This document shows, in pieces, positions 9,798 through 54,657 of a DNA stretch of 64,000 bases. Positions within the stretch are counted from its first letter, which is position 1. Each line of letters opens with the position of its first letter. The DNA is taken from the NCBI GenBank assembly GCA_014905635.1, contig JABVCE010000014.1, positions 372,001-436,000 of the forward strand, given 5' to 3'. The notes beneath the pieces were generated by a model. It was given only the letters and a program-made list of their open reading frames with translations, searched no databases and was not told the DNA's origin. The position numbers and the translations under genes are program-made. Source of the DNA: Scenedesmus sp. PABB004. Its lineage: Eukaryota.

Positions 9798-10723
9798 ATG
9801 CGGCTCTCCGTGGGCGCCGGCGTCGCGCCCGCGGCGCGATGGAGCGCCGCCGCTCGCGTTGGCGGGCCGTGCAGGTGCGCAGGCCGCGCCGCAGCCGGCC
9901 ATCCTGCTGCGCCCGCCCCGCTCACGCCGCGGCGCCGCACGCAGGCGCCGGGCGCTCACGGCCTCTGCCTCGGCCACACGCACCTCTCCCACGACCGCCG
10001 CCGGGCCGCGCGCGAGCGGTGAGGCGGGGGCGGCCCTGATCGGTCGCGAAAGCTGCGGGCTGTCGCCCACCGTCCCCGCGCCCGCCCGCAGGCGCGCGGC
10101 CCCTGGTAGTGGGCGGACCCACGCCCCGCCGCTGGTCGGGCGTCACCCGCGTCGCCACGCCCGCGCGCGAGGTGCGGGGCGGCCGCCGCCGGCGGCAGCA
10201 GCACAGCCGCCGCGTCCGCCCGCGCGCGCCGCTCACGCCGCTGCCGCCGCGCCGCGCAGACGGCGACGGGCTCTGAGGTCACGTCCAAGCTGGGGTCGAG
10301 CGCGGAGGTGATCCAGCTCTACCGCTACCCCGGGCTGAGCAGCTCCGCCGCGTCGACGCTCCTGCACAAGGTGCGCCGCCGCGCGGCGGCGGCGGCGCGG
10401 CATGGCGCCCAGCAGCGCGCAGCAGCGATGCCGCCCAGCGGCAGCGGCGCGCAGTCGCGGCGCCGAGCCACCGCGCGGCGTCGAGCCGCCGCGCGGCGTC
10501 GCGCGTCCGCGTGCGCGCAGGCGCAGAGCAAGGTGAGCGACGCCATCAACTCCATCGACGGCGAGCTCTGCTTCAACATCGGCCTCGCCGCGCCGCTCAG
10601 CGCCGACGAGGCGGAGAAGCTCGCCTGGTGCGCGCGCGCCGCGCCGTGGACCCGCCCACCCGCCCTACGCCCGCGCGCGCGGTGGCCCCGCCGCACCGCA
10701 CCCCGCGCGCGCCCGCGCCTGAC

Positions 10724-10772
<49 letters not shown>

Positions 10773-13700
10773 GGCAGGCTGCTGCGCGAGACGTTTGAGC
10801 CGCAGCAGCTCACGCCCGCGAGCATCTTTGACGGCCGCGTGGAGAGCCAGGTCGTGGTCGAGGTCGGGCCGCGGACCAACTTCAGCACCGCGTGGTCGAC
10901 CAACGCGGCCAGCATCGCCGCGAGCGTCGGCCTCGACAAGGTCGCGCGCCTCGAGCTCAGCCGCCGCTACCTGCTCACCTGCGCGCGCCCGCTCAGCGAC
11001 GACGAGCGCGCCGCGTTTGCCGCGATGGTGCACGACCGCATGACCGAGCAGGTGCGCCGCCGCCGGCGCCGCTGCCGCGGCTGCCGCCGCCGCCGCCGCT
11101 TCTGCCGGCGCCGCCGACCCCGCGCCGACCCTGCGCCGCCGACCCCGCGCGCGCCGCGCAGGTGTACGAGGCGCCGCTGGCGACGTTCAAGGTCGACGCC
11201 GCGCCGGCGCCCGTGTTCACGGTCCCGGTCATGGCCCAGGGCCGCGCCGCGCTGGAGGCGATCAACGAGGTGCGGCCCGCGCCGCGCCGTGCTGGGCCTG
11301 GGAGCTCTGGGGCTGGGGAGCCGCGCGCTGCCGCGTGTGTTGGTGTTTGCGTGGTGCCGCGCGCGCGCGCGTGCCTGCGCTTGCGACAAGAGGGAGCCGG
11401 TGACATTAAACACAAACACAACGCACGTATTACCTGAGCAATCGCAGTGCTGAGCTGTACGCCTGAGGCTCCCCCTCGCCGCAGCGCGTGGCGTGGCGCG
11501 GCGCTGACTGCGCGTGTGCGTGCGTGCGCGTGCGCGCGGCCCGACGATGAACACCAATTGATGCATTTCCAGAACCAAAAGCGTGTGGAAAACACTTGGA
11601 GACCTGAACTGAGGGCTGCGCTGCGCGCGTCTGGCGTGTGTGTGTGCGTGCGCGAGCAAGCGGCGACGATGACCAAACTGACTAATCCCAGCTCTCTGTA
11701 GCCGGGCAAACGGCAACGGCATTGCCGCCGGCGTTGAGGACCAACTATGACGGTAGCTGAGCCCTTGCTGCGCCCTCCGCGCGGCGTGTGGTCGTGTGCT
11801 GCTGCTGCCGTTGGCGTGCGCGTGTGGCGGGACCGAGGCGACGATGACCAAACTGACTAATCCCAGCTCTCTGTAGCCGGGCAAACGGCAACGGCATTGC
11901 CGCCGGCGTTGAGGACCAACTATGACGGTAGCTGAGCCTTTGGCGTTGGTTGTGTGCCATGCGTTCTCTGGGCCGCGACCCCGGAGCCCGGCTGGGCGCT
12001 CGCCTGCCGCCGCACGCCGTCCGCGCCCCGTGGCGCCCGCTGACGCGCCGCGCGTCTCCGTCGCGCCCCGCAGGAGATGGGCCTCGCGTTTGACGAGTGG
12101 GACCTCGACTACTACGCCCGCCTCTTTGCCGACATGGGCCGCGACCCCACCAACGTGGAGCTCTTTGACATTGCGCAGTCCAACTCGGAGCACTCGCGGT
12201 GGGCGGGCGGGCTGGCGCGCCGTGGCTCGGCTCGCGCACGCAGCGCGCGCGCGCGCGCCGGTGCGCAGCGCGCCGACAATGCGCCGCCGCCAACAATGTG
12301 TCGCCGCCCGCAGGCACTGGTTCTTCAAGGGCGACCTGGTCATCGACGGCGCCAAGGCGCCCGACAACCTCATGGACGTGGTCACCGCGCCGCTCAAGGT
12401 GCGCGCGTGTGTGTGTCACGCGGCGGGCGAGCCCGCGCGGGGTGAGAACCCTGCTGACGCCGCGTTGGCGGCCGCCGCCCGCGCAGGCGCGCCCCGAGAA
12501 CAACAGCGTGGTCGCGTTCAAGGACAACTCGAGCGCGATCCGCGGCTTCGAGGTGACCGCGGGGCTTCGCCCTCCCGCGCCCGCCCGCGACTGCACCTGC
12601 GGCCGCCGCTGCCGCGCGGCGCCGCGCCGACGAGCCCGCCGCGCCCGCCGCGCAGGTCACGCCGCTGCTGCCGCGCAACCCGGGCGGCCCGAGCGCGCTC
12701 GCGCCGGCGGCGCGCGACTGGGACCTGCTGCTCACCGCCGAGACCCACAACTTCCCCTGCGCCGTCGCGCCCTACCCAGGTGCGCGAGCGCACGGGCGGC
12801 AGCGGCGGTGCCCGCGGCGCGCGGCGCAGCGGCCGGTGCAGCGGCCGCGGCAGCAGCCGCGGCAGTGCGGGGCAGGCGGCCGGCGGCTCGGGGCAGGCGG
12901 CCGGCAGCGCGGGGCAGCGCAGCGCCGCACCCCGCCAGGCGTATCTGGGCCGCTGGAGCCGCCCGCGCCCCTCGGGGCGCGGGCGGCGCTGAGGGCCGCC
13001 TTCGAAGCCCTGGCCAGAGCGACCCGCCTGTGCTTGCGACGTGGCCCGCGGCCCCGCCATTCGCGGTGCCACTACTTTTTGCCAGGGACAGCGCACAGCG
13101 CCCGCTCGCGCGCACCACCCCACGCCGCGCGGCGCCAGTGCGCCGCCCGCGCCGCCGCCGCGCTCACCCGCGTCGCCGCCGCGCCGCGCCCCGCCGCCGC
13201 CGCCCAGGCGCCGAGACGGGCGCGGGCGGGCGCATGCGCGACACGCACGCGACCGGCACGGGCAGCATGATGGGCGCCGGCACGGCCGGCTACTGCGTCG
13301 GCAACCTGCGCCTGCCCGGCGTGCCGGCGCCGCACGAGGACGAGAGCTTTGCCTACCCGGACAACCTCGCCTCGCCCCTGCAGGCGCGCCGCTGCCCGCG
13401 CCGCGCGCCCGCCCTCGCCTGCGCTCGCGGGCGCCCCGCTCCCTCGCCCCTGCGCGGCGCCGGGGGCCGCGCCGCCCGCCGCGCGCCGCGCCGCTGGCTC
13501 GCACCCTGCGCGCCGCGCTGCCCGCTCGCACCCCGCGCCGCTGGCTCACGCCGCGCCGCCGCCGCCGCCGGCGCCGCCGCCGCAGATCCTGATCGACGCC
13601 TCCAACGGCGCGAGCGACTACGGCAACAAGTTTGGCGAGCCCCTCGTCGCCGGCTACACGCGCACGTTTGGGCAGCGCCTGCCCGGCGGCGAGCGGCGCG

Positions 13701-16700
13701 AGTGGCTCAAGCCCATCATGTTCAGGTGGGCTGAGAAGGAGCCGGCGGCCCTGGCCGCGCCGCGCGACGGCGCCAGCGCGGGCGGGGCGCGCGCCGCCGC
13801 CTGCCGGGCCCCCGCCTACGCGGCGCGCGCCTCACCCGCCCCCGCGCGCCGCGCCGCCGTGCCGCGCAGCGGCGGCGTGGGCCAGATCGACCACCGCCAC
13901 CTGGCCAAGGCCGACGGCGAGCTGGGCATGCTGGTCGTCAAGATCGGCGGCCCCGCCTACCGCATCGGCATGGGCGGCGGCGCCGCGTCGAGCGTGCCGA
14001 GCGGCTCGCGCGGCAAGAGCGAGCTCGACTTCAACGCCGTGCAGGCGCGCGCGCGCGTGCGGGCGGCGGCGGCGCGCGCTGCTGGGCCGCGCGCGCGCGG
14101 CGGCGGCGTGCTGGGCCACGCGCGCGCGGCGGCGGCCGCGCTGGGCCGCGCTCGCGCGGCGGCGCCGCGGTCGCGCGGCGGGGGCGCGCCGGGGCGGCGG
14201 CACACAGGCTGCGCACCGCGCGCCCTCCCTCACCCTCCTGCCCGCCCTGCCCCGTCGCGCCGCCCCGCAGCGCGGCGACGCGGAGATGGCGCAGAAGCTC
14301 TGGCGCGTCGTGCGCGCGTGCGTGGAGCTCGGCGGCGCCAACCCGCTGGTGCAGATCCACGACCAGGGCGCGGGCGGCAACTGCAACGTGGTCAAGGAGA
14401 TCATCTACCCCCTGGGCGGCCAGATTGACGTCCGCGCCGTCAAGGTCCGCGCCGCGAACCTTGGACGCGCCGCGCGCTGCGCGTGCTGCGCGCCGCTGTG
14501 TTTTCATCACGCTTTATTGCGTGCTGCGAGCGGCGCGCCGACGCGCCGCCGCCGCCCCCGCGCCCGCCGCCACCGCCGCGGGCACAACAGGTCGGCGACG
14601 AGACGATGTCGGTGCTTGAGATCTGGGGCGCCGAGTACCAGGAGAACGACTGCCTGCTCATCAAGCCGGCCGACCGGGGGCTGCTCGAGGCGATCTGCGA
14701 GCGCGAGCGCTGCCTCATGCAGGTGCGGCGCCGCGGCGGCGCTGGGCGTTTGCGTTTGGCTGTGTTGAGCGTTGGTGTTGACACGTGCGTGCGCGGGGCG
14801 TGCACGCGCGCGCGCGCCGCGCGCGCGGCGGTCGCGCGTGCTTCACGACGCCTGGGACGCCTTCGCGGCGTTGCTGCGCCGCCAGCACGCGCGGCGGCCG
14901 CGCGCGCGGCGCGCGCAGCGGCGCTGGCGCCGCCTGTGCCGCGCGCTTGCGCCGCGCGCCGCGCCCCGCGCCCCGCTGGCGCCGCTGTGTTGTGGCCGTG
15001 CGCTTGCCGTGATGCTTCACACCAATACATGTTAGACTACCGACCGGGGCGCCCTCACACGGCCCCCGGGCTGAGTTCAACACTTCCGTGACTGAGCAAG
15101 CAGTCCCCGCGCGCGTGCGCTGCGCGTGCCGAGCGTGTGCTGCGTGTGCTGCGTGTCGGGCCGTGCGCGGCGGCGGCGGCGGCCTGGCGCTGATGACAAC
15201 ACCAGCAGGAGCCGCGCGCGGCGCTGAGCTGCACACAATTAGACTACAATTCTCTGAGCCACGCGCCCGCCCCTGCCCCTCATCCGTGCCTCGCGCCTCC
15301 CCGCGCACCCACTGGCCCTGGCCCTCACAACCCCCCGCTCCCGCTTCCCCACCCACACCCACACACACCCGCACGCGCTCGCCCGCCCGCAGGTCATCGG
15401 CACGATCGACGGCAGCGGGCGCGTGACGCTCGTCGACCGCCTCGCCGAGCCCGGCACGCCCACGCCGGTCGACCTCAACCTCGACCAGGCGCGCCGCCGC
15501 CTTGCCTGCTGCCGCGCTGCCTGCTGCCCTGCCTGTCTGCTGCGGCCGCGCCGCGCGGCCCTGCCGCGCGGCTGCCGCCGCCGCGCCACGCGCTGCGCCC
15601 CAAGGGCCTCACCCGCGCCCGGTCCTCTGCACGCACCCACCCGCCGCCGCCGCCGCCTAAACCCTAGGTGCTCGGCAAGATGCCCAACAAGACCTTCACC
15701 TTCACCAGCGCTGACCCCGCGCTCGCGCCGCTGGCCCTGCCCGAGGGCACGACCCCGGGCGACGCGCTCGGCCGCGTGCTGCGCCTGCCGGGCGTCGGCT
15801 CGAAGCGCTTCCTCACGACCAAGGTCGACCGCCACGTCACGGGTGCGCGCGCGCCGCCGCCGCTGTTTGGTTGCCCGCGCGTGCCGCTGGCGTGTGTGTG
15901 TGTGTGTGTGTGCGTGTGTGTGTGTGCGCGTGCGCGGGGGCCCGCGCGCCAGCCGTCCGAGGATGCGAAAAGAAATTCCATGCTAATTCCTAGCCCCCCC
16001 TCGCGGGGTGAGTGCAGAGACTCCTTTCTCACCAAGATCTGCACTGAGGACAGCCACACCGCGCGCGCCGCGCGCCCCGCATCGTGTTGGCCCTGCGTTG
16101 ACCGCGTCGCTGCCTGCGCTGCCTGCGCGCCGTCGCCGGCCGCGCACGCCGCGCCGCCGCGCCGCTGACGCCGACGCGCCCGCCCCGCGCCCCGCGCCGC
16201 CCCGCGCCGCCGCGCAGGCCTCGTCGCGCAGCAGCAGTGCGTCGGCCCGCTGCAGCTCCCCGTCGCCGACGTGGCCGTGTACGCGCAGAGCCACTTTGAC
16301 ACGACCGGCCTCGCGACCTCCATCGGCGAGCAGCCGCTCAAGGGCCTGCTCTCGCCCGCCGCGATGGCCCGCCTCGCGATGGGCGAAGCGCTGACCAACC
16401 TCTGCTGGGCCTCGGCGACGAGCCTCGCCGACGTCAAGGCGAGCGTTAACTGGATGTACGCCGCCAAGATGGGCTCCGAGGGCGCCGCGATGTACGACGC
16501 CGCGTGCGCGCTGCGGTGAGTGCGGCGCCGCAGGGGCTGGCGGCGCGCCGCGGCGCGGGGGCTGCGCCGCGTGTGCGCGTGCGTGCGCGCGCGCGTGCGT
16601 GCGTGCAGGCGTGCTGCGCGGCACGGCGCGGTGCGGTGATGATGCACCCCAATCATGCCAGTTCTGCTGCTGAGAACAACCGTGCTGAGAGCGTTGGGTA

Positions 16701-17479
16701 CGCATCACTGAGCACTGCCGCCGCCGCCTGGCGCCCCGCGTGTGCGTGCGCGTGTGAGTGTGAGCGTCGGCGTGAGCGTGCGCGCGCGGGCCGCGAGCCC
16801 GCTCGCGCCCCGCGCGGCGGCAGCAGCAGCTGCTGCCGCGGCGGGGGCGGTGGGGCCTGCCGGTGATGAGAACGATTCTCATTCATGCGTGTCAGTTGAG
16901 GCGCGGCCCGGGGTTCCCCGGCGCCGCCCGCTGAGATCAACCTAATCTTCTCTCTGAGGCCACCCACTCGCTCGCTCGCTGTTGCTCGCGCCGTTGCTGC
17001 CGCATGTCGCGTGTCGCGTGCCGCCGCCGCCGCCGCCGCCGCCGCGCCCCGGCCGGTGATGCACAACCGTTATGTATTTGCTACTCTTGAGCTCGCTCGG
17101 TGACGAAACAATCTCCACCAAGATCTCTGAGGCCCCGCGGCGCGCGGGCGGCGGCTGTGCGCGGCGGCGGCTTGTGCGCGTGCGCGTGTGTGAGGTGCTC
17201 TGCTCCTCGTCGCAGTGGACCCTCCCTTGCGCCTCTCTCTCCTCCTCCCTCTCCACGCGCACCTCTCACGCGCGCCGCCGCTCCCCCACCCCTTCGCCGC
17301 GCCGCAGTGACGCGATGATCGAGCTCGGCTGCGCCTGCGACGGCGGCAAGGACTCGCTCTCCATGGCCGCCTCGGCCGGCGGCGAGACGGTCATGGCCCC
17401 CGGCAACCTCGTCGTGTCGGCCTACGTCGGCTGCCCAGACATCACCAAGGCGCGTGGCGCCGCGCGCAGCTTGGCCTCG

Positions 17480-17510
<31 letters not shown>

Positions 17511-20500
17511 CGCCTGCTGCGCGCGGCCGGCCGCCGGCCGTGGGCGACCACGCCCCGAGGGCTGAGCTGAGCGCCGCCGGCGCGCCCGCGCCGCGCGCAG
17601 GTGGTGACGCCCGACCTGAAGCTCGCGGGCGAGGGCGGCCTGCTGCTGCACGTCGACCTCGCGTCCGTGCCGGGCGCGCGCCGCCTCGGCGGCTCCGCGC
17701 TCGCGCAGGCCTACGACCAGGTGCGGCCGACGACCAGGCGGCGGCGGCCTCCTGCCGCGCCGCGCGCGCGCGAGCGAGGGCGAGGGGAGAGGGGGCGCCT
17801 CGGTCTCCCTGCCTGCTGCCTGCTGCCGGCGCCAGGGGTGCCGGCGCCGACCGCGCCCGCGCCCGCGCCGCGCGCCCCGCAGCTCGGCGACGACTGCCCG
17901 GACGTGCTGCCGGCGCAGCTCAAGGCGGCGTGGGGCGCGGTGCAGGCGGCGGTCGACCGGCGGCTCGTGTCGGCCGGGCACGACGTCAGCGACGGCGGCG
18001 TCGCGACCGCACTCCTGGAGATGGCCTTTGCCGGTGCGCGGCGCCGCGGCGGGGACGGCGCCGCGCGGCGCGGGCCGCGGGCCGCGGCGCGCGGGCAGGC
18101 GCGGCGCCCTCCCTGCCAACCCTCTCGCCGCTGCACGCACGGGCGGACACACTAGAGTCACTCGCATGCCCAAGCCCCGTGGCATGACGCAGCGCTTACT
18201 CCCGCCCAGAGCACAGCTGCTGCGCGCGGGGGCGTCCGCCGGCCGGCCCGCGCCCAGCGGCGGCCGCTGCCCCCGGCGCATTCATCTTTTCCCTTTCCTC
18301 CCCCTCACCCCCTCGTCCCCGTCCCGCCGCGCCTCCCCCGCACGCCCTGCCGCCCGCCCGCCGCCGCTCACCCGCGCCCGCCGCCACCCGCCGCCGCCGG
18401 CCTCCCCCGCCAGGCAACTGCGGCATCGAGGTCGACCTCCCCGCGCCGGCCGTGTGCGCGTCGGCCGAGCTCGCGCCGTATGCGGCGCTGTTTGCGGAGG
18501 AGCTCGGCCTGGTGCTCGAGGTCTCCCCCGCCAACGCGGCGGTCGTGAGCAGCCTCTTCAACCAGGCCGGCGTGCCCTGCGCCATCATCGGCAAGGTGCG
18601 CGGCGCGGCGCACACAGCGCGCCGCCAGGGGCCGCGGGGCGCGGCGCAGCGCTCGCCGCCAGCGGGCGTGCGGCTCCGCGCCGACGCGTCCCGCGCCGCC
18701 CCCGCCGACGGCGGCCGCAGGTGCTGGCGGAGCCGCGCGTCGACGTGCGCGTGGGCGGCCAGCCTGCGCTGTCGGGCAGCACGCCCGCGCTGCGCGACGT
18801 GTGGGAGGAGACGAGCTTTGCGCTTGAGCGCCTGCAGGCGTCCGAGGAGTGCGTGGCGCAGGAGCAGGCGGGCCTGGCGGGCCGCACCGCGCCGGCGTGG
18901 GTCGTGCCCTTCACGCCGACGTTCACCCCCGCCGACAAGCTCAGCGCGGCTGACAAGGTGCGTGCGTGTGTGCGCCGCGCGGGCCGCCGCCGCCGCCGCC
19001 CCGGGCGACAGGTCGCTTGCCACCCCGCGTTGCCCACCCCTCGCTCACTCGCCGCCCGCGCGCCGCGGTCCCCCGTCGCCCCGCGCCCCACCAGGTGCGC
19101 GTCGCGGTCATCCGCGAGGAGGGCAGCAACGGCGACCGCGAGATGTCGGCGGCCGTGTACGCAGCGGGCATGGAGCCGTGGGACGTCACCATGAGCGACC
19201 TGCTCGCCGGCCGCGCCAGCCTCGACTCGTTCAGGCGCGCCGGCGCGACGCCGCGCCGCCGCGCCGCCGCCGCCGCCGCGCCCCGCCCCTTCCTCTGCAC
19301 GCGCCGCGCTCGCCCCGCGCTCACCTCCCCCCGCCCCTCCTGCCCCTCCCCGCCCTGCCCCTCCTGCCCCCCTGGCCCTGCCGCCGCGCGCGCAGGGGTC
19401 TCATCTTTGTGGGCGGCTTCAGCTACGCCGACGTGCTCGACAGCGCCAAGGGCTGGGCGGGCGCGATCCGCTTCAACGACCGCCTGCTCTCTCAGTTCCA
19501 GGCCTTCTACAACAGGTGAGGGCGAGGGAGGGCGAGAGTGTGAGAGCGAGAGAGGGAATGACAGCCCCCGGCAGTGTGCTGTGCGTGTGGTTGGGAGGGG
19601 CGTGTCGGGGTTCTCACCGGGTGGGGGGCTGGGCTGGGCGCGCCGCCCCAACGCCGCCCCAACGCCGCGCCCGCCGCCCGCCCGCCCGCCGCGTGCGCCA
19701 GGCCCGACACCTTCTCCCTGGGCATCTGCAACGGCTGCCAGCTCATGGCGCTGCTCGGCTGGGTGCCCGCGACCGCCGACGCGAGCGGCGGCACCGCCGC
19801 GCAGCTGCCGGACCTGCAGCAGCCGCGCTTCGTGCACAACAAGTCTGGCCGGTGCGCGCCGCGCGCGCGCCGGGGCACGCAGCGCGGGGCCGCGCGGGCT
19901 CCGCCTTGGGGCGCCGCCGCCGTTCCGCTGTGGGGCGGCCCCCCCGCGCTCACGCGCCCGCGCGCCCGCGCGCGCGCCCGCACGACCGCAGTTTTGAGAG
20001 CCGCTGGCTGACGGTGTCCATCGCGGAGGACAGCCCGAGCATGTGGCTCGCCGGCATGGGCGGCGCGAGCCTCGGCGTCTGGGCCGCGCACGGCGAGGGT
20101 CAGGTGCTCTTCCCCGACGCCGCGGTGCAGGCGGCGGTGCTCGACGGCAAGCTCGCCCCGATCAGGTGCGCGGCGCGGCGGCGCGCGGCGCGGCGTGCGT
20201 GTGCGTGTGAGTGTGAGTGTGAGTGTGCGTGTGCGCGTGCGCGTGCGCGTGCGTGTGGGGCGCGCCCGGCCCGCCGGTGAGGAGCACACCAATCGTTGTT
20301 GAGAGCTGAGCGCGGCCGCCCGCGGGGCACGCGGGCGGTCGGTGAAGCCAACCCTGGTTCGCTCGACTGAGGCGTGGCGCGCGGGCGTGCAGCGTGCCGC
20401 GCTGCGCGCTGCCGCGCCGCCGCGCTCCTTTCCTCGCCTCCCGTCCGCGTGGGGCGCCGCCGCTCACCCGTGCGCGTCGCCCTGCCGCCGCCGCCGCCGC

Positions 20501-20786
20501 CGCTGCGCTGCCCGCCAGGTACGTCGACGCGAGCGGCGCGCCGACGGAGGCGTACCCGTTCAACCCCAACGGCTCGCCGCTCGGCATCGCGGGCCTCTGC
20601 TCCGCCGACGGGCGCCACCTGGCGATGATGCCCCACCCCGAGCGCTGCTTCCTCGCCTGGCAGCTCCCCCACGTGCCCAAGGGCGTGGGCCTCGACCCCT
20701 ACGGCCCCGCGCCGTGGCTGCGGCTGTTCCAGAACGCGCGCGCGTGGGCCGAGGCGACCGCGCCGGCCGAGGAGGACGCCGCGTGA
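9798..20786 (+). CDS. purL: Phosphoribosylformylglycinamidine synthase (large PurL/PUR4) with organellar transit peptide, about 29 exons
   Basis: Motifs EVGPRTNFSTAWSTNA, HDRMTE, QSNSEHSRHWFF, TAETHNFP, GAETGAGGRMRD, IHDQGAGG, GGKDSLSM, REEGSNGDREM, GGFSYAD, LGICNGCQL, AHGEG, MMPHPER. Stop at 20784-20786. Confidence 0.95.
11392..11473 (+). ncRNA. Intronic box C/D snoRNA candidate, 18S guide (U45/Um172-like site)
   Basis: 7-bp terminal stem GGGAGCC/GGCTCCC. Degenerate C box GTGACAT, D' CTGA, C' GTGCTGA, D CTGA 11463-66. Guide ACGCACGTATTA is antisense to chlorophyte 18S UAAUACGUGCGU. Confidence 0.7.
11536..11619 (+). ncRNA. Intronic box C/D snoRNA candidate, 25S guide
   Basis: Stem GCGGCCC/GGGCTGC, C box ACGATGA, D CTGA 11609-12. 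Guide CTTGGAGACCTGA is antisense to 25S UCAGGUCUCCAAG; the D+5 rule gives the first G. Confidence 0.75.
11662..11763 (+). ncRNA. Intronic box C/D snoRNA candidate, copy 1 (snR79-like 18S guide; possible snR69-like 25S guide)
   Basis: C box ACGATGA, D CTGA 11757-60. Guide ACTATGACGGTA pairs with 18S UACCGUCGUAGU (one G-U). Upstream CTAATCCCAGCTC pairs with 25S GAGCUGGGUUUAG (one mismatch). Confidence 0.75.
11837..11938 (+). ncRNA. Intronic box C/D snoRNA candidate, copy 2 (identical duplicate of 11662-11763)
   Basis: 102-nt exact duplicate bounded precisely by the GGC/GCC terminal stem; the flanks differ. Confidence 0.75.
13008..13093 (+). ncRNA. Intronic H/ACA snoRNA candidate guiding 18S pseudouridine in GAGUA-U-G-GUCGCAAG
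   Basis: Lower stem CCCTGGC/GCCAGGG followed by ACA (13088-90). Upper stem GTGGC-CCGCG/CGCGG-T-GCCAC. Pocket arms CTTGCGAC and TACTTT pair either side of the target U; 15 nt to ACA. Confidence 0.7.
15002..15101 (+). ncRNA. Intronic box C/D snoRNA candidate (snR58-like, 25S AGU-Cm-UAAC)
   Basis: Stem GCTTGC/GCAAGC, C GTGATGC, D' CCGA, D CTGA 15092-95. Guide ATACATGTTAGACT is antisense to 25S AGUCUAACAUGUAU. Confidence 0.75.
15186..15260 (+). ncRNA. Intronic box C/D snoRNA candidate, 25S 5'-domain guide
   Basis: C box TGATGA, D CTGA 15254-57, GGC/GCC stem. Guide TAGACTACAATTC is antisense to green-lineage 25S GAAUUGUAGUCUA. Confidence 0.7.
15955..16051 (+). ncRNA. Intronic box C/D snoRNA candidate, double guide (18S snR53-like plus 25S)
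   Basis: Stem GTCC/GGAC, degenerate C AGGATGC, D CTGA 16044-47. Guides ATTCCATGCTAAT (18S AUUAGCAUGGAAU) and CACCAAGATCTGCA (25S UGCAGAUCUUGGUG). Confidence 0.75.
16631..16715 (+). ncRNA. Intronic box C/D snoRNA candidate (U38/snR61-like, 25S AGC-Am-GAAC)
   Basis: Stem GTGC/GCAC, perfect C GTGATGA, D' CTGA, C' GTGCTGA, D CTGA 16708-11. Guide GCCAGTTCTGCT is antisense to 25S AGCAGAACUGGC. Confidence 0.8.
16858..16960 (+). ncRNA. Intronic box C/D snoRNA candidate guiding U6 snRNA (A47, C77) and 25S
   Basis: C GTGATGA 16863-69, D' TTGA, D CTGA 16954-57. Guide CTAATCTTCTCT is antisense to U6 AGAGAAGAUUAG. Guide CATTCATGCGTGTCA pairs with 25S UGACGCGCAUGAAUG and with U6 UGACACGCA. Confidence 0.8.
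17051..17134 (+). ncRNA. U24: Intronic box C/D snoRNA U24 (SNORD24/snR24) homologue
   Basis: Stem GGCC/GGCC, C GTGATGC, D' TTGA, C' GTGACGA, D CTGA. Carries both U24 signature guides TATTTGCTACT and CCACCAAGATCT in the canonical order. Confidence 0.88.
18141..18215 (+). ncRNA. Intronic H/ACA snoRNA candidate (snR191/U19-like, 25S helix 69)
   Basis: Stem GGGCGG/CCGCCC followed by AGAGCA(CA). Upper stem CATGCC/GGCATG. Pocket arms AGAGTCA and TTACTC pair with 25S GAGUAA-CUA-UGACUCU. Confidence 0.6.
20272..20374 (+). ncRNA. Intronic box C/D snoRNA candidate, double guide (5.8S 5' end plus 25S 5' domain)
   Basis: Stem CGCC/GGCG, C GTGAGGA, D' CTGA 20306-09, D CTGA 20367-70. Guides CGTTGTTGAGAG (chlorophyte 5.8S CUCUCAACAACG) and CTGGTTCGCTCG (25S CGAGCGAACCGG). 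Confidence 0.75.
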
Positions 20787-22888: not shown

Positions 22889-26075
<3,187 letters not shown>

Positions 26076-43933: not shown

Positions 43934-45862
43934 AGCAGGCGCGCGGCGCAGCCGGCGCGCGCGCTGACGGCGGGTGGAGCCAATGCTGCTCCCTCGACAT
44001 CAGCGCGCACGCCGCTGCGCCGCTGCCGGCCCGCCGGCCCGCCCCCCGGCGCCGCCCGCACCCGCGCTCCGCCGCCGGCGTTGCGCGCGCCCCGCAGCTC
44101 TCGGCGCAGCGCAGCGGCGTGCGCGGTGGCGGTGGGCTGGCGGCCGTCACTGTCCCACACCACCGGCACCGCGCACGCCGCCGCGGTGCGCCGCGCCGCG
44201 CCGCCGCTGCTCCGCCCCCGCCCGCGCCGCAGTCCTCGGCGCGCAGCACTCGGTGCGGGCGCGCGTGCAAGTCGCGGCGCGCACGCAAGCAGGGAAGGGC
44301 GGCGACGCGGCGCGACGCCCTGCAAGCCGCAGGCAGGGCGCAACAAGCAGGCGCGCGGCGCAGCCGGCGCGCGCGCTGACGGCGGGTGGAGCCAATGCTG
44401 CTCCCTCGACATCAGCGCGCACGCCGCTGCGCCGCTGCCGGCCCGCCGGCCCGCCCCCGGCGCCGCCCGCACCCGCGCTCCGCCGCCGGCGTTGCGCGCG
44501 CCCCGCAGCTCTCGGCGCAGCGCAGCGGCGTGCGCGGTGGCGGTGGGCTGGCGGCCGTCACTGTCCCACACCACCGGCACCGCGCACGCCGCCGCGGTGC
44601 GCCGCGCCGCGCCGCCGCTGCTCTGCCCCCGCCCGCGCCGCAGTCCTCGGCGCGCAGCACTCGGCGCGGGCACGCGTGCAAGTCGCGGCGCGCACGCAAG
44701 CAGGGAAGGGCGGCGACGCGGCGCGACGCCCTGCAAGCCGCAGGCAGGGCGCAACAAGCAGGCGCGCGGCGCAGCCGGCGCGCGCGCTGACGGCGGGTGG
44801 AGCCAATGCTGCTCCCTCGACATCAGCGCGCACGCCGCGGCGCCGCTCGCCGGCCCGCCGGCCCGCCCCCCGGCGCCGCCCGCACCCGCGCTCCGCCGCC
44901 GGAGTTGCGCGCGCCCCGCAGCTCTCGGCGCAGCGCAGCGGCGTGCGCGGTGGCGGTGGGCTGGCGGCCGTCACTGTCCCACACCACCGGCACCGCGCAC
45001 GCCGCCGCGGTGCGCCGCGCCGCGCCGCCGCTGCTCCGCCCCCGCCCGCGCCGCAGTCCTCGGCGCGCAGCGCTCGGCGCGGGCGCGCGTGCAAGCCGCG
45101 GCGCGCACGCAAGCAGGGAAGGGCGGCGACGCGGCGCGACGCCCTGCAAGCCGCAGGCAGGGCGCAACAAGCAGGCGCGCGGCGCAGCGGCGCGCGCGCT
45201 GACGGCGGGTGGAGCCAATGCTGCTCCCTCGACATCAGCGCGCACGCCGCGGCGCCGCTCGCCGGCCCGCCGGCCCGCCCCCCGGCGCCGCCCGCACCCG
45301 CGCTCCGCCGCCGGCGTTGCGCGCGCCCCGCAGCTCTCGGCGCAGCGCAGCGGCGTGCGCGGTGGCGGTGGGCTGGCGGCCGTCACTGTCCCACACCACC
45401 GGCACCGCGCACGCCGCCGCGGTGCGCCGCGCCGCGCCGCCGCTGCTCCGCCCCCGCCCGCGCCGCAGTCCTCGGCGCGCAGCGCTCGGCGCGGGCGCGC
45501 GTGCAAGCCGCGGCGCGCACGCAAGCAGGGAAGGGCGGCGACGCGGCGCGACGCCCTGCAAGCCGCAGGCAGGGCGCAACAAGCAGGCGCGCGGCGCAGC
45601 GGCGCGCGCGCTGACGGCGGGTGGAGCCAATGCTGCTCCCTCGACATCAGCGCGCACGCCGCGGCGCCGCTCGCCGGCCCGCCGGCCCGCCCCCCGGCGC
45701 CGCCCGCACCCGCGCTCCGCCGCCGGCGTTGCGCGCGCCCCGCAGCTCTCGGCGCAGCGCAGCGGCGTGCGCGGTGGCGGTGGGCTGGCGGCCGTCACTG
45801 TCCCACACCACCGGCACCGCGCACGCCGCCGCGGTGCGCCGCGCCGCGCCGCCGCTGCTCCG
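43934..45862. repeat. Tandem array of about 4.7 near-identical 411-412 bp units
   Basis: GTGGAGCCAATGCTGCTCCCTCGACATCAGC recurs at 43974, 44386, 44797, 45209 and 45621. Confidence 0.97.
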
Positions 45863-46423
45863 GCCGCCCGCCCGCGCCCGCACCTGCGCAAATCAGCCGC
45901 CGTGCGCTGGCCGGCGCGCATGGGATCGCAGATGCAGTGCCTCGGCGCGCCGCGCTCGGCGCGCGAAGCCTCGGGCGCGAGAGGGCAGCGCGGCGCAGCG
46001 GCGCCGCTGCGCGCCGGCGGCGGCCCGGCTCTTCATCCGCCCCAAGCATCGGTGGCCCGGTCAGGCGGCCGAACGAAGCGCGGGGCCCGTGCGTTCTGCC
46101 GCCGTCACGCGTCGTATTGACGGCGGCGCACGAACGCAGCGCGGCAGCCGCCGCGGCCCAACACCACCTGCAGAAAGTGCAGCACCGCCACCCGCAGCAG
46201 CAGGGGGCGGCGCCCGACGCGAAACCGATCCAGCTGTCGCTGCCGCTGCCGCAGCAGCAGCGCTGCGCTGCCCGAGCCACACCTTGCCGCCACAGCGCAC
46301 CGCGAGCTCGTGAGCGTGAAGCGGGGCGTGCGACGCTCGTACCAGGCGGGCGGGCGGCGGAGGGGGCCCCCGGCAGCAGCGGCGGCGCCTCCGGCGGCAG
46401 CGGCCGCGCCGGCGCGAGCCGCG

Positions 46424-52361: not shown

Positions 52362-54657
52362 TCAGCTGTTTGGCAGGATCTCCAGCGACACCTGCTTGAG
52401 GCTCGGCCGCTCCTGGCTGCTCCACACGCACTGCGTGACCTCGGGGTCCAGCGGCGAGCGGCGCAGCACCTGCGGCGGCGAGGGCACGATCGCCGCGCCG
52501 TGCCGGCAGGCGCGCAGCGCCGCCGCCGGCGCCGCCGCCGCGCGCGCCCCCACCTGCCAGGGGCCGGGGTAGCAGCGGAAGAGCGCGCCCGGCCGGGAGC
52601 CCTTGAAGTTGTGGCTGACGCGGCGGCGACGCGGCGGCGCGGCGACGGCGGCGGTCCGTCGGCCCGCCGCTGGCGGCGCACAGGGCGCAGAGCCCTGAAC
52701 TAGGAACCCCTAAAGCCCTGAATGCGAACCTCCAAAGCCCTGAACTAGAACCCCCTTAAGACCTACATGTAGTACGCCGCCTCGACCTGGGGGAGCCACT
52801 CGGACGTGAGCTTGGCGAGCTCCGGGAAGAAGATGCCTGCCGGGGGGGAGGAGGGGGGGGAGGAGGAGGGGTGGAGAGGGAGCGCGTGGAGGGCGCGGCG
52901 GGGCGGAGGGTGCGGCGGGGCGGAGGGTGCGGCGGGGCGGAGGGTGCGGCGCTGGGCCGCGCCGGGCCCCCGCGCTGAGAGCCGCGCTGCCGCGCACCCA
53001 CCGGGGTAGTACCCGCCCCGCAGGCGGTCGAGCTCGCCCTGGAAGATGATCAGCGGCCGCCCGCTCGGCGCGGCCGCGGCGTCCCACAGCGCGCGCGTCG
53101 CCGAGAGCTCCTCTGCGCGGCGCGGCGCGGCGGCGCGGCGGCGCGAGGCTCACACGCGGCGGCGCGCGGGGCCGGTGCCGCGCGCGGCGCGTGCGTGCGC
53201 GCGCGCAGACGGCAAACGCCCTGCAGCGCTCGTGCAGCGAGTGCTCGTGCGTCATCAGCGCGCCGCACCCACCGCGGGGGTTAAAGCTGGGGTAGGCCAC
53301 CACCAGCACCTGGTCCGACGGCGTGACGAGCTGCGCGGGGCTGAACGTCGCGCCAAAGTTGAACCCCAGCACCGCCCACGCGGCGCTCTGCTTGGTGAGG
53401 TAGCCGAGCTTGAACCCCGCGTCGCTGCCAAACACCGCGTCCATCGCCTGCCGCCCCGCCGCGGGGTCGCTCGTCTGCCCGCTGCGCGCGACGGCGAGCT
53501 CCTGCGGGCGGCGGCGGCGCGGCGCGGCGCGGCGCGGGTCGGGGCGGGGCGGCGCGGCGCGCCCGGCTCACCGCGGGCGCCCCTACCCCCTGCCGCCGCG
53601 TCGCTCGACCCCCGGCCAGGCCCTCCCCTCCCGTCCCCCCTCCCCTCCCGTCCCCCCTGACAAGCAACCGGCACGCGCTCTCCCCCGTTGCTCCTGGGTG
53701 ATGATGCCGTTTGAACACCACACCATCGTCACCTAGGAGCAACGCGGGAGCGCGCGCCGGCTGGTGCCACCAACGCCAACGCGCCCTCCCCCTTCGACGT
53801 GCTCGTCCCAGGCGCCCTGCCAACAGACCAAGCGCTGGCAAGGCCAACAACAAGGCACCCTCCACCCCCCGGCGCCCCTGCTGCTGCTCACGATGTTGTC
53901 AGGGAAGAACACGCGCACGCCGCCCGCGGCGTCGCCGCCCCAGCCGGCGTTGAGGTACTGGCGCAGCAGCGCCATGCTGCTGTTCATCTCACTCTGGCCG
54001 TCGCCGTCGCCTGGCCGGGCGGGCGGCGGCGCCGCGGGCGCGCGCGCGCGCGCGCGGCGCGGTCGGGAAACGCGGCGGCGGCGCGGCCCCGGCGCCGCGC
54101 CACCACCGCCGACCCCGGCGCGGCCGCGCGCGCCGCGGCGGCGCGGCTGGGCGCCGGCGGCTCACCCTGCGCCGCGCAGAGGCCCGAGGCCGGGAACTCC
54201 ACCTCCAGCAGCCTGTGCCCGTCGGCGAGCGCCGCCTTGGTCGCGAGCTGCGCCTGGCGCACCGCGGTATCGTACTCGCTGGGGAACGCCTGCGCCGGCG
54301 GCGGGTGAAGCGGCAGGGCGCTGGGGCCCGCCCCGCAGGCGAGCTGCACCGGCGCGCAGCTGGCTGCGGCGGCGCAGCGCGCCAGCGCGGCTGGTGGCCG
54401 GCCGCGCCCTGAAAAGGTCGCGGGAGGCCTGCAGCCGCGCTGGCGTGCTGCGCCGCCGCTGCTGGCTGCGCGCCGGTGCAGGCGCGCCGGTTGCCGGCAC
54501 ACAAGCAGGCGCTCACCGCCAGCTGGATGGCCTCGGGCCGCGCCGCTGCGCGGGCGGGCCGGCAGCGCCCGGCGACGCCGCCGCGTGTCGGGGCGGGCGC
54601 GCGCTGCTGCGCCGCGCCGCCGGGCAGCGCCGCGCCGCGGCGCTGCGCGTGCAGCAT
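52362..54657 (-). CDS. LPA3: LPA3-like DUF1995 plastid protein, 7 exons
   Basis: Transit peptide, then FPSEYDTAVRQAQLATKAALADGHRLLEVEFP, VRVFFPD, LVVAYPSFN, IIFQGELDRLRGGYYP, YYIHNFKG, LFRCYPGPWQV, PSLKQV. Confidence 0.85.

Follow-up and report, generated by a model that had tools for sequence, protein, structure and literature searches.

Can the gene for a metabolic enzyme, purL, serve as host to a whole set of snoRNA genes? A first-pass annotation of the window (the whole 64-kb stretch of DNA analysed here) had proposed that purL introns lying within 11270..20518 carry at least 11 box C/D and 2 box H/ACA RNAs, several of them sharing an intron. The answer depends on the host gene, on the boxes and guides of each unit, and on what is known of such genes in other algae.

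The host gene and its long introns

The purL gene, coding for FGAM synthase, occupies positions 10261..20786 of the + strand, with at least 26 exons and 25 introns and a stop codon at 20784-20786. In the gene model, a single open frame is spliced across these 26 exons and 25 introns. Over 1341 aa, its product is 85% identical to the T. obliquus (Tetradesmus obliquus) purL protein (P0004), the alignment being broken by a single 1-aa gap away from the exon junctions. A query made of purL exons matched proteins named purL in Sphaeropleales, with identities of 82-89%. Judged by these alignments, the host gene is intact, and the host alga is a chlorophycean related to Tetradesmus, its class having been guessed correctly in the first-pass annotation. 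In Chlamydomonas, purL is CHLRE_08g364800v5.

Of these introns, exactly the seven longest, of 353-804 nt, contain the snoRNA-like units; the remaining 18 measure 88-226 nt. We recovered the full count of 11 box C/D and 2 H/ACA candidates, all on the + strand, which is that of the host, with the reservation that C1, C10 and HA2 are weak. Intron 11270-12073 contains four units (C1, C2, C3a and C3b), intron 14723-15392 two (C4 and C5) and intron 16516-17307 three (C7, C8 and C9). Single units are found in introns 12780-13207 (HA1, an H/ACA unit), 15843-16217 (C6), 18034-18413 (HA2, also H/ACA) and 20166-20518 (C10). The outer limits given to the cluster hold, as introns 11270-12073 and 20166-20518 are both genuine purL introns in the gene model. 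Two or more sense units per intron are therefore present in three introns (4, 2 and 3 units) of a gene whose frame is intact. Over the 13 units, the distance to the 5′ splice site is 106-279 nt, and that to the 3′ splice site 114-172 nt.

Boxes, stems and sequence constraint

A CUGA D box is present in 11/11 of the C/D candidates. Compared to RUGAUGA, the C box has no mismatch in C7 and C8, a single one in C2, C3a, C3b, C4, C5, C9 and C10, two in C6, and three in C1, which thus fails on this box. The RUGAUGA-like start and CUGA end first announced for the units are therefore general for the D box, and true within 0-1 mismatch for 9 of 11 C boxes, C6 and C1 being the exceptions. A script detected terminal stems of 4 bp or more in C2, C3b, C4, C5, C7, C9 and C10; in C1 (7 bp), C3a, C6 (4 bp) and C8 (an external stem) the stem was identified by eye. 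A strict scan, which required a CUGA, no more than 1 mismatch in the C box, a terminal stem of 4 bp or longer and a length of 60-130 nt, regained 7 of the 11 C/D units, missing C1, C3a, C6 and C8, and gave just 5 matches elsewhere in the 64 kb, both strands included.

Base composition is less informative. Most C/D units do have a GC content of 0.53-0.64, against 0.79 for the window, as expected from the AT-richer islands initially noticed, but 8 further AT-richer islands of the window are non-snoRNA, so that AT-richness is unspecific.

Constraint on the units was estimated by comparison with metagenome contigs from a strain that is ∼98% identical. The snoRNA bodies (307 nt) show a single difference, and the intron spacer (613 nt) shows 14 (p = 0.03). 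C1 (81 nt) holds 4 of the 19 differences, and varies like spacer.

Guide pairing compared to chance

Pairing was tested on rRNA of other eukaryotes (L108, L100, L023 and L014). With these targets, a guide of at least 10 nt, complementary to rRNA and ending 1-3 nt before the D or D′ box, was found in 9 of the 11 C/D units (C2, C3a, C3b and C4-C9), and in neither C1 nor C10. The antisense stretches claimed for the units thus stand for these nine, to which C8 adds pairing with U6, and do not for C1 and C10.

In a more stringent test, anchored beside the D or D′ box, a duplex of at least 12 contiguous Watson-Crick (WC) bases with at most 1 G-U pair was formed by 8 of 20 guides, as compared to 1 of 215 CUGA sites located elsewhere in the window (Fisher p = 5e-9) and 0 of 200 shuffled guides. 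Leaving out C5, whose match is partly circular since the L108 and L100 loci were retrieved with part of its guide, the figure is 7/19 (p = 6e-8). Unanchored 11-mers antisense to rRNA showed no excess of strand or region, with 111 of 818 in the region on the + strand and 112 of 894 on the − strand.

Seven C/D guides (C2, C4 D′, C6 D′, C7 D′, both C8 D′ and D, and C9) share strings with snoRNAs of O. tauri, as do the pockets of both H/ACA units (PMC7671301). Those O. tauri snoRNAs were observed in RNA-seq data, and targets have been assigned to them (PMC7671301).

The box C/D units

C9 (17051..17135, +; C box GUGAUGC at 17056, D′ UUGA at 17087, D CUGA at 17127) is the U24 equivalent that had been proposed. 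It scores 46 bits with Rfam SNORD24 (RF00069), above the gathering score of 41, over model positions 1-76 (17051-17134), and its two guides each form 12 WC pairs with adjacent LSU stretches. Its counterpart in O. tauri is Ot-CDsno115 (PMC7671301).

C7 (16628..16719, +; C GUGAUGA at 16636, D′ CUGA at 16670, D CUGA at 16708, 7-bp stem) is of the U38/snR61/Z223 type. Its D′ guide forms 12 WC pairs with LSU AGCAGAACUGGC in L108, L100, L023 and L014, and the unit scores 30 bits over its full length with snoZ223, below the gathering score of 45. Both C7 and Ot-CDsno44, assigned to 25S A1015 (SNORD38/snR61/At-U38), carry CCAGTTCTGCT, and the identity of these guides bears out the snR61/U38 equivalent (PMC7671301).

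C8 (16848..16967, +; C GUGAUGA at 16863, D′ UUGA at 16896, D CUGA at 16954) has two predicted targets. The D′ guide forms 14 WC and 1 GU pairs with LSU UGACGCGCAUGAAUG, and its 16 nt are identical to the guide of Ot-CDsno85, assigned to 25S.C2147 (PMC7671301). The D guide with its box, CUAAUCUUCUCUCUGA, agrees at 16/16 positions with the snoU6-47 consensus (positions 112-127), a local match whose score is 16.2 for a gathering score of 54. This guide is also complementary at 12/12 positions to AGAGAAGATTAG of O. tauri U6, in the ACAGAGA region, and the U6 guide predicted from the outset is therefore found. Its counterpart in O. tauri is Ot-CDsno55 (PMC7671301).

C6 (15954..16055, +; C AGGAUGC at 15960, D′ CCUA at 15989, D CUGA at 16044) pairs through its D guide with LSU over 15 WC bases (L108 from 1515), 3 nt 5′ of the U24 site. 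Its D′ guide, of the snR53 type, forms 12 WC and 1 GU pairs with SSU GUUAGCAUGGAAU and is related to that of Ot-CDsno96 (U6.A51/18S.A770, SNORD8/9/snR53), a resemblance which agrees with the snR53 equivalent suggested earlier (PMC7671301).

C2 (11534..11621, +; C ACGAUGA at 11544, D CUGA at 11609, 9-bp terminal stem) is snoZ159-like: its D guide forms 13 WC bp with the LSU rRNA of L108, L100 and L023, and its full-length score with snoZ159 is 29.1 bits, under the gathering score of 39. The guide and box string is identical in Ot-CDsno94, which the authors assign to 25S.G1731 and snoZ159 (PMC7671301).

C3a (11657..11769, +; C ACGAUGA at 11666, D′ CUGU at 11696, D CUGA at 11757) forms 11 WC and 1 GU pairs with SSU through its D guide (L108 982-993, L023 976-987), and 12 WC pairs with 1 mismatch with LSU GAGCUGGGUUUAG through its D′ guide, of the snoR69Y type. 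The 13-nt guide equals the snoR69Y consensus, and the full-length score is 20 bits for a gathering score of 45. C3b (11836..11940, +; C box at 11841, D at 11932) is its tandem duplicate. The two form a direct repeat of 106 nt, 99% identical and spaced 175 nt, with a sole difference at 11764; this duplication is recent.

C4 (15002..15101, +; C GUGAUGC at 15009, D′ CCGA at 15040, D CUGA at 15092, 6-bp terminal stem) has a D′ guide which pairs with LSU AGUCUAAC... over 10 contiguous WC bases, or 13 WC with 1 mismatch. With SNORD104 it scores 18.3 bits (gathering 40), in a match that skips ∼20 model positions and covers only 15006-15052. C4 and Ot-CDsno38 have ACATGTTAGACT in common, but the target given by the authors is 25S.A574, whereas the D′+5 reading of C4 leads to a C (PMC7671301).

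C5 (15186..15260, +; C CUGAUGA at 15190, D CUGA at 15254) forms 13 WC pairs through its D guide with the LSU 5′ domain (L108 140-152, L100 144-156), the partly circular match mentioned above. In the independently retrieved L023, the same guide pairs at the same LSU place with 10 WC and 2 GU.

C10 (20272..20374, +; C GUGAGGA at 20277, D′ CUGA at 20306, D CUGA at 20367, 4-bp stem, GC 0.71) was regained by the strict scan, but the best duplex of its D guide, 11 WC with 1 GU and 1 mismatch at the LSU 5′ end of L014, lies within the control range. In C1 (11393..11473, +; C GUGACAU at 11400, D′ CUGA at 11434, D CUGA at 11463, C′-like GUGCUGA at 11447), the three guides tested gave 7, 9 and 7 WC pairs with rRNA, none above the control level. 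Searching eukaryotic rRNA returned no target for C4 D, C5 D′, C7 D, C10 D and C10 D′.

We conclude that C2, C3a, C3b and C4-C9 are, on sequence criteria, at least nine box C/D snoRNA genes. C10 is a probable C/D unit with no clear target, and C1 is doubtful; C1, like HA2 below, may be decayed. The comparison with Rfam came out above gathering for SNORD24, and below it for snoZ223/U38, snoZ159, snoR69Y, SNORD104 and snoU6-47. Because of these scores we do not file the latter units in those families; their guides nevertheless match the consensus, and they would be expected to work alike. The snR58 and snR79 equivalents also listed in the first-pass annotation presumably agree with the yeast sites. 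Neither name has any occurrence (0) in the O. tauri tables (PMC7671301).

The H/ACA units

HA1 (12934..13093, +) is of the snR31/SNORA8/snoR5 type, with a two-hairpin fold: a 5′ hairpin (12934-13014), an H-like box AGAGCG (13016-13021), a 3′ hairpin (13027-13086) and an ACA at 13088-13090, 16 nt past the upper stem. The H-like box deviates from ANANNA by its last position, a G; in our own reading, the O. tauri homologue has ACATCG at this place. Compared to shuffled sequences, the fold reaches only z = −1.79. The 3′ pocket, 16 nt from the ACA, forms 8+8 pairs (12 WC and 4 GU) around the U of SSU GGGGAGUA-UG-GUCGCAAG. The strings GGCGTATCT, GCTTGCGACG and CTACTTTTTGCCA are common to HA1 and Ot-HAsno32, assigned to 18S.U971 and U1088 (SNORA8/snR31/At-snoR5a; PMC7671301).

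HA2 (18141..18282, +) has a 5′ hairpin (18141-18207), an H box AGAGCA (18208-18213) and a 3′ hairpin (∼18221-18279) followed by AUU where an ACA is expected, so that the unit is without an ACA box. Its fold is no better than that of shuffles (z = −0.09), and it has no match in Rfam. The 5′ pocket, 14 nt before the H box, forms 5+9 pairs (13 WC and 1 GU) with the LSU, around the UU of UGAGC-UU-GACUCUAGU. The string ACACTAGAGTCAC is found in HA2 and also in the 5′ hairpin of Ot-HAsno108, for which the assigned target is 25S.U2251/2259 (SNORA3/snR11; PMC7671301).

Exhaustive pocket scans showed that equal scores arise by chance. The weight given to the H/ACA pockets comes from the identical strings in Ot-HAsno32 and Ot-HAsno108. 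By its sequence features, HA1 is probably a canonical box H/ACA snoRNA.

How the units may be expressed

The observation of snoRNA units in purL introns is confirmed. It is very probable that purL doubles as a snoRNA host, with at least 9 C/D units and HA1 carried in sense by seven long introns, up to 4 per intron; the boxes and correctly placed guides, in an intact frame, agree with what had been proposed. In such a scheme, purL would be transcribed by Pol II, and the introns freed by splicing. snoRNP proteins would bind the C/D kink-turn or the H/ACA hairpins and, in multi-snoRNA introns, endonucleolytic cuts in the spacers would be followed by exonucleolytic trimming. Co-transcription and processing would yield RNAs of ∼75-160 nt. 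Predicted targets of 2′-O-methylation number about nine in the LSU and two in the SSU, with in addition the A that ends the ACAGAGA box of U6; sites of pseudouridylation are predicted in both SSU and LSU.

It was further proposed that the arrangement is selected, the rRNA and U6 guides in purL coupling purine supply to ribosome and spliceosome maturation. We consider this unlikely. The load of 13 units is high for one coding gene, one unit (C8) guides U6, and growth requires purL, all points in its favour. However, no tested result bears on co-regulation, and in O. tauri the abundant intronic Ot-CDsno53 is uncorrelated with how strongly its host is expressed, snoRNA stability having been proposed as the chief determinant of abundance (PMC7671301). 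Moreover, the O. tauri hosts are functionally diverse and do not include purL as far as the tables go, with 0 occurrences of 'formylglycinamidine' (PMC7671301). The recent C3a/C3b duplication suggests instead a neutral local growth of the cluster.

Real snoRNA units might also have their own promoters inside the introns, purL being a neighbour and not a host. The introns with 4, 3 and 2 units do resemble polycistronic clusters, from which the majority of snoRNAs are produced in plants and Chlamydomonas (PMC7671301; PMC5122169). Yet 13 of 13 units are in sense, in seven separate introns over 9 kb, at rather uniform distances from the splice sites, and no intergenic space was seen, which makes this explanation very unlikely. 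Finally, the candidates might for the most part be box-like motifs, and not genes, that arose by chance in AT-richer parts of the introns, but this is hardly credible: the non-snoRNA islands and the flat count of unanchored 11-mers would fit, but the anchored guide statistics, the SNORD24 score and the guides identical to those of experimentally detected O. tauri snoRNAs (PMC7671301) contradict it for 9 C/D units and HA1; for C1, C10 and HA2 it may still hold.

Comparison with known systems

With purL as the host, the locus can be set beside described cases. In O. tauri, some of the counterparts are intronic, in diverse protein-coding genes, and the hosts of that alga include, besides RPL9 and Sda1, genes for a nucleoporin, a helicase, a membrane protein and proteins of the DUF92 and JmjC types (PMC7671301). 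The premise that hosts are typically ribosome or translation genes is soft in view of this diversity, because of which a metabolic enzyme as host is not odd in itself. The O. tauri counterparts differ in being single-copy and scattered over many loci, against 13 units in one gene here, and at most two or three consecutive introns per host carry snoRNAs there (PMC7671301).

In Chlamydomonas reinhardtii, intronic snoRNA gene clusters were reportedly described by Chen and colleagues in 2008 (Genetics 179:21); compared to that species, the alga studied here has a far higher GC content (79%). In vertebrates and insects, hosts of the UHG/GAS5 type release many snoRNAs from the introns of one spliced transcript, one per intron, and such hosts are often non-coding or connected with translation. 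purL is alike in having many units per transcript, but it is an intact gene for an enzyme, and a single intron holds as many as four of them. Plant polycistronic clusters similarly have several snoRNAs per precursor and short spacers, and their precursor is presumably cut by an endonuclease then trimmed, as would be the case here; they are mainly intergenic with their own promoter, whereas the precursor in purL would be the intron (PMC5122169). Green algae were already known to have protein-coding genes with snoRNA clusters in their introns, and we regard the purL cluster as a sound new example of a layout known from green algae, plants and animals.

The purL host gene and its introns

The window has a G+C content of 79%. 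In the gene model read from the sequence, purL lies on the + strand, begins at 10261 and ends with a stop codon at 20784-20786, and comprises at least 26 exons; the spliced frame contains only one stop, the terminal one. Translation of this model gives a protein 85% identical to the Tetradesmus obliquus purL protein over 1341 residues, with one gap of 1 aa away from any junction, and identities of 78% and 72% to the Chromochloris and Chlamydomonas reinhardtii proteins. A 98-aa purL exon used as a query retrieved named phosphoribosylformylglycinamidine synthases, those of Sphaeropleales being the best (82-89%). From the open spliced frame, the near-gapless alignment to the T. obliquus protein and the named matches of the exon query, the host gene is an intact purL of a chlorophycean alga. 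Relatives of purL in viral_contigs reached just 40-54% identity and are not algal. A search for U6 and purL in the assemblies that contain L023, L026 and L029, three of the loci retrieved with the U24-guide pattern (see below), found neither.

By length, the 25 introns form two groups: 7 of 353-804 nt and 18 of 88-226 nt. Five of them start with GC, not GT (13384, 14045, 15489, 17450 and 19235), and all five share the context AG followed across the junction by GCGCG(C/T). These starts are supported because the protein alignment is gapless across the junctions concerned. The usual share of GC-AG introns is about 1%, and the 20% in purL is far higher. At the extreme 3′ end of intron 15489-15667 stands AAACCCTAG (15659-15667), which we take to resemble the plant telo-box.

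Location of the snoRNA units

The first-pass annotation had described purL, between 11270 and 20518, as host to at least 11 C/D and 2 H/ACA RNAs in 7 introns. Its two limits coincide with intron borders (one intron starts at 11270, another ends at 20518), and its candidates sit in exactly the seven long introns, where the same units were relocated, split 4/1/2/1/3/1/1. Intron 11270-12073 holds C/D units C1, C2, C3a and C3b, the last two forming a tandem duplicate (106 nt, differing at one base). The H/ACA unit HA1 is in intron 12780-13207, C/D units C4 and C5 are in 14723-15392, C6 in 15843-16217, C7, C8 and C9 in 16516-17307, the H/ACA-like HA2 in 18034-18413, and the C/D unit C10 in 20166-20518. 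All 13 units share the strand of the host (+). Within an intron, 106-279 nt separate the 5′ splice site from the start of the first unit, and 114-172 nt separate the end of the last unit from the 3′ splice site. The units account for the length of these seven introns, which exceed the others two- to eightfold.

A (GY)n or TG-rich tract occurs in the 50 nt upstream of C2, C3a, C3b, C5, C6, C7 and C10; examples of tracts preceding C/D units are 15875-15946, 16552-16627 and 20174-20265. These upstream tracts make up repeat family D1, and neither H/ACA unit has one. The share of TG/GT dinucleotides is 0.27-0.45 in the tracts versus an intron mean of 0.11. They could be a processing or spacer feature, or just a repetition of the usual 5′ intron composition.

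Boxes, stems and Rfam matches

The D box is CUGA in 11 of the 11 C/D units. C7 and C8 have a perfect C box; it has one mismatch in C2, C3a and C3b (ACGAUGA), C4 and C9 (GUGAUGC), C5 (CUGAUGA) and C10 (GUGAGGA), two in C6 (AGGAUGC) and three in C1 (GUGACAU). A strict box and stem script found 7 of the 11 units (C2, C3b, C4, C5, C7, C9 and C10), plus one spurious combination within C1. Outside the purL units, on both strands of the 64 kb, it gave five matches; none of the five had an AT-balanced guide or an rRNA match of at least 12. Judged by eye or by the guide test, neither these five nor the other AT-richer islands of the window are snoRNAs.

Across the whole window, SNORD24 at 17051-17134 was the sole Rfam match over the gathering score (46 bits versus 41). 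Under an E-value threshold, C7 matched snoZ223 (30 bits, gathering 45) and C2 matched snoZ159/U59 (29.1 bits, gathering 39), both over the full model length. The match of C3a to snoR69Y (20 bits, gathering 45) also covers the full model, and its 13-nt guide equals the consensus. C4 scored 18.3 bits with SNORD104 (gathering 40), skipping about 20 model positions and spanning only 15006-15052. The last 16 nt of C8 (guide and D box) are those of consensus positions 112-127 of snoU6-47, a local match only (16.2 bits). We claim family membership on score for SNORD24 only; the sub-threshold matches are evidence that the guides are known ones.

Pairing of the C/D guides with rRNA and U6

The guides, i.e. 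the stretches just 5′ of box D or D′, were paired with rDNA of other eukaryotes, taken from prokaryote assemblies and from metagenome contigs. With a pattern made from both U24 guides, fragments of eukaryotic rDNA were retrieved from prokaryote assemblies, where they lie in at least 46 contigs. Of the five long loci annotated with Rfam, four carry SSU, 5.8S and LSU, L023 and L029 as complete rDNA units and L010 and L014 in truncated form; the fifth, L026, had no match. A second pattern, from the C5 guide, retrieved LSU rDNA in metagenome contigs; all four annotated loci were rDNA, two of them (L108 and L100) complete units. Eukaryotic LSU rDNA occurs in many prokaryote assemblies and MAGs (L001-L046, at least 46 loci), L023 for example in a 532-kb contig labelled as Actinomycetota MAG, and is probably contamination or mis-binned eukaryotic contigs.

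Duplexes were to start 1-3 nt from D or D′, with zero mismatches and at most one G-U pair. In LSU, the best runs of Watson-Crick (WC) bases were 15 for the D guide of C6, 14 for the D′ guide of C8, 13 for the D guides of C2 and C5, 12 for the D′ guide of C7 and for both the D′ and D guides of C9, and 10 for the D′ guide of C4 (13 with one mismatch). In SSU, they were 12 for the D′ guide of C6 and 11 for the D guide of C3a/C3b. Runs of at least 12 WC were found for 8 of 20 guides, versus 1 of 215 other CUGA sites (104 on the + strand outside the region and 111 on the − strand) and 0 of 200 shuffled guides (Fisher p = 5e-9). C3a/C3b is one guide counted twice and, with 11 WC, falls outside the eight. 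Control sites reaching 11-13 were nearly all guides of 67-100% G+C pairing with GC-rich expansion segments, with one exception (22160, − strand). Unanchored counts of 11-mers antisense to rRNA carried no information, since GC-rich DNA of any kind finds matches in GC-rich expansion segments.

There is some circularity in the match of C5 to L108 and L100, as the C5 guide itself had supplied 12 letters of the search pattern. Its non-circular part is the location of the string, at LSU ∼140-156 in Rfam-annotated rRNAs. The independently fetched L023 pairs with the C5 guide at the same place (10 WC + 2 GU), and without C5 the count is 7 of 19 guides with at least 12 WC (p = 6e-8). For five guides (C4 D, C5 D′, C7 D, C10 D′ and C10 D) a target was not found in the fetched rRNA; C/D snoRNAs commonly use just one of their guides. 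The initial equation of C4 with snR58 and of C3 with snR79 fits what we take to be the yeast sites, 25S C663 and 18S C1007.

The D guide of C6 and both guides of C9 converge on one LSU stretch, with predicted sites, in L023 numbering, at G1471 (C6), C1474 (C9 D) and A1486 (C9 D′). This is the "U24 pair" that the first-pass annotation had recognised.

The D guide of C8 is predicted to target, at D+5, the last A of the U6 ACAGAGA box, presumably the counterpart of human U6 A47. The guide, CUAAUCUUCUCU followed directly by CUGA, is a perfect complement of O. tauri U6 AGAGAAGATTAG (PMC7671301, supplementary file 2). Its O. tauri counterpart, Ot-CDsno55, carries CTAATCTTCTC and has U6.A45 as target according to the authors (PMC7671301). 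Counted on the printed sequence, this is the same nucleotide as the C8 target, their numbering being 4 lower. A 10-nt complement of U6 ATTAGCATGG can also be read by eye in the D′ guide of C6.

Counterparts in Ostreococcus tauri

The supplement of PMC7671301, which gives snoRNAs detected by RNA-seq with their predicted targets and homologues, was queried with short guide strings. C7 corresponds to Ot-CDsno44 (25S A1015; SNORD38, snR61, At-U38), C2 to Ot-CDsno94 (25S.G1731; snoZ159), C6 D′ to Ot-CDsno96 (U6.A51 and 18S.A770; SNORD8/9, snR53), C9 to Ot-CDsno115 (SNORD24, At-U24) and C8 D′ to Ot-CDsno85 (25S.C2147, same 16-nt guide). For C4 D′ the counterpart is Ot-CDsno38 (25S.A574), where the authors give an A whereas D′+5 of C4 falls on a C. 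The names snR58, snR79, snR54 and snoR69 have zero occurrences in these O. tauri tables.

The H/ACA units

HA1 (12934-13093) folds into two hairpins with the linker CAGAGCGA, followed by an ACA at 13088-13090. Its fold energy has no useful margin over shuffles (z = −1.79 only). The 3′ pocket, fixed beforehand by the fold and 16 nt from the ACA, pairs 8+8 (12 WC + 4 GU) around a U in SSU GGGGAGUA-UG-GUCGCAAG (L100 U1113), with a score of 28 versus a maximum of 24 among 100 shuffles. The pocket pairing alone is weak, because chance scores of 25-30, as high as real ones, turn up when all pocket positions are scanned exhaustively. What is decisive for the putative identity of HA1 is its homology to Ot-HAsno32: the two have GGCGTATCT (5′ pocket), GCTTGCGACG and CTACTTTTTGCCA (3′ pocket) in common, and the ACA is equally distant (PMC7671301). 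Ot-HAsno32 is assigned 18S.U971 and U1088, with homologues SNORA8, snR31 and At-snoR5a (PMC7671301). The H box of HA1, AGAGCG, departs from ANANNA at the last position; by reading, Ot-HAsno32 has ACATCG there (PMC7671301).

In HA2, a hairpin at 18141-18207 is followed directly by AGAGCA, a proper ANANNA box. Its pocket, 14 nt upstream of the H box, pairs 5+9 (13 WC + 1 GU) around UU in LSU UGAGC-UU-GACUCUAGU. HA2 and the 5′ hairpin of Ot-HAsno108, which is assigned 25S.U2251/2259 (SNORA3, snR11), have ACACTAGAGTCAC in common (PMC7671301). A second hairpin (∼18221-18279) is followed by AUU, with zero ACA up to the 3′ splice site, and shuffled sequences fold equally well (z = −0.09). Rfam scans of each H/ACA region alone gave zero snoRNA families. 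We class HA2 as H/ACA-like; it is either a working RNA whose 3′ box is unusual or one in decay.

Weak C/D units and strain variation

C1 has a 7-bp terminal stem, three CUGA boxes and a degenerate C box, and its guides reach just 7-9 WC. C10 was recovered by the box and stem script. The best duplex of C10, formed with the 5′ end of the L014 LSU (11 WC + 1 GU + 1 mismatch), is within the control range, and the stretch matched is variable among lineages.

Among the sequencing runs listed as matching the window, none was of RNA. In one freshwater DNA metagenome run, contigs were ∼98% identical to the window at 11330-12028, 15122-15318 and 17161-17419, which indicates that a close strain of the alga lives in that sample. 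Over the pieces listed (8 of 446), 19 differences were counted. Among these pieces, C2, C3a, part of C3b and C5 together had 1 in 307 nt, at the C2 outer stem, C1 had 4 in 81 nt and the spacer 14 in 613 nt (snoRNA bodies versus spacer, Fisher p = 0.03). The pattern is what one would expect if the good units were constrained and C1 were not, and is a hint, because the contigs are of low depth and the pieces are 8 of 446.

Other features of the window

A tandem array at 22895-25485 has 5.4 copies of a 480-nt unit, 97% alike, part of which encodes, by eye and on the − strand, a peptide resembling ubiquitin; the array may be a polyubiquitin gene in which every repeat has one intron. Another, at 43934-45878, has 4.7 copies of a GC-rich 412-nt unit, 98% alike. 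Telomere-like CCCTAAA-type repeats lie inside AT-richer islands at 316-397 and 52688-52786.

Proposed production of the snoRNAs and comparison with known hosts

The sense orientation and intron location of the units, their boxes, stems and guides, and their homology to expressed O. tauri snoRNAs were observed. On the general course of snoRNA production (PMC5122169, PMC7671301), splicing of the purL pre-mRNA would release the snoRNAs, endonucleolytic cuts would part those sharing one intron, exonucleolytic trimming would proceed to the snoRNP-protected ends, and the guides would then act at D+5 (C/D) or in the pocket (H/ACA).

We regard it as quite improbable that purL is a conserved, selected snoRNA host in Sphaeropleales or Chlorophyceae, whose load keeps the seven introns long and fixed in position. 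If it were, one growth-regulated transcript would give a purine-synthesis enzyme and about a dozen rRNA/U6 modification guides. A coupling of purine supply to ribosome maturation is speculation; one abundant intronic O. tauri snoRNA is uncorrelated with how strongly its host is expressed (PMC7671301).

The analysis yields a workable annotation, predicted targets included, for some dozen snoRNA genes of a green alga with extremely high G+C content; ORF-based annotation is blind to these genes. It extends to this lineage the O. tauri, plant and yeast families U24, U38/snR61, snR53-type, snoZ159, snoR69Y, U6-47 and snR31/SNORA8. The notable trait is the load of 13 units in one coding gene, with up to 4 per intron, and the list of algal hosts gains a gene for a metabolic enzyme whose snoRNA load is unusually high. 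Knowledge of snoRNA organisation or production is unchanged by the purL case. For Chlamydomonas, intronic snoRNA clusters in protein-coding genes are reported as the norm (Chen et al. 2008). A literature search, with the Chlamydomonas host list outside its range, found nothing among the papers listed that links snoRNAs to purL, and purL is absent among the O. tauri snoRNA hosts given in PMC7671301. Because intronic clusters are published for Chlamydomonas, and because the intronic snoRNAs of O. tauri have hosts of many functions (PMC7671301), we conclude that the purL set is a well-supported further case of an already known gene layout.
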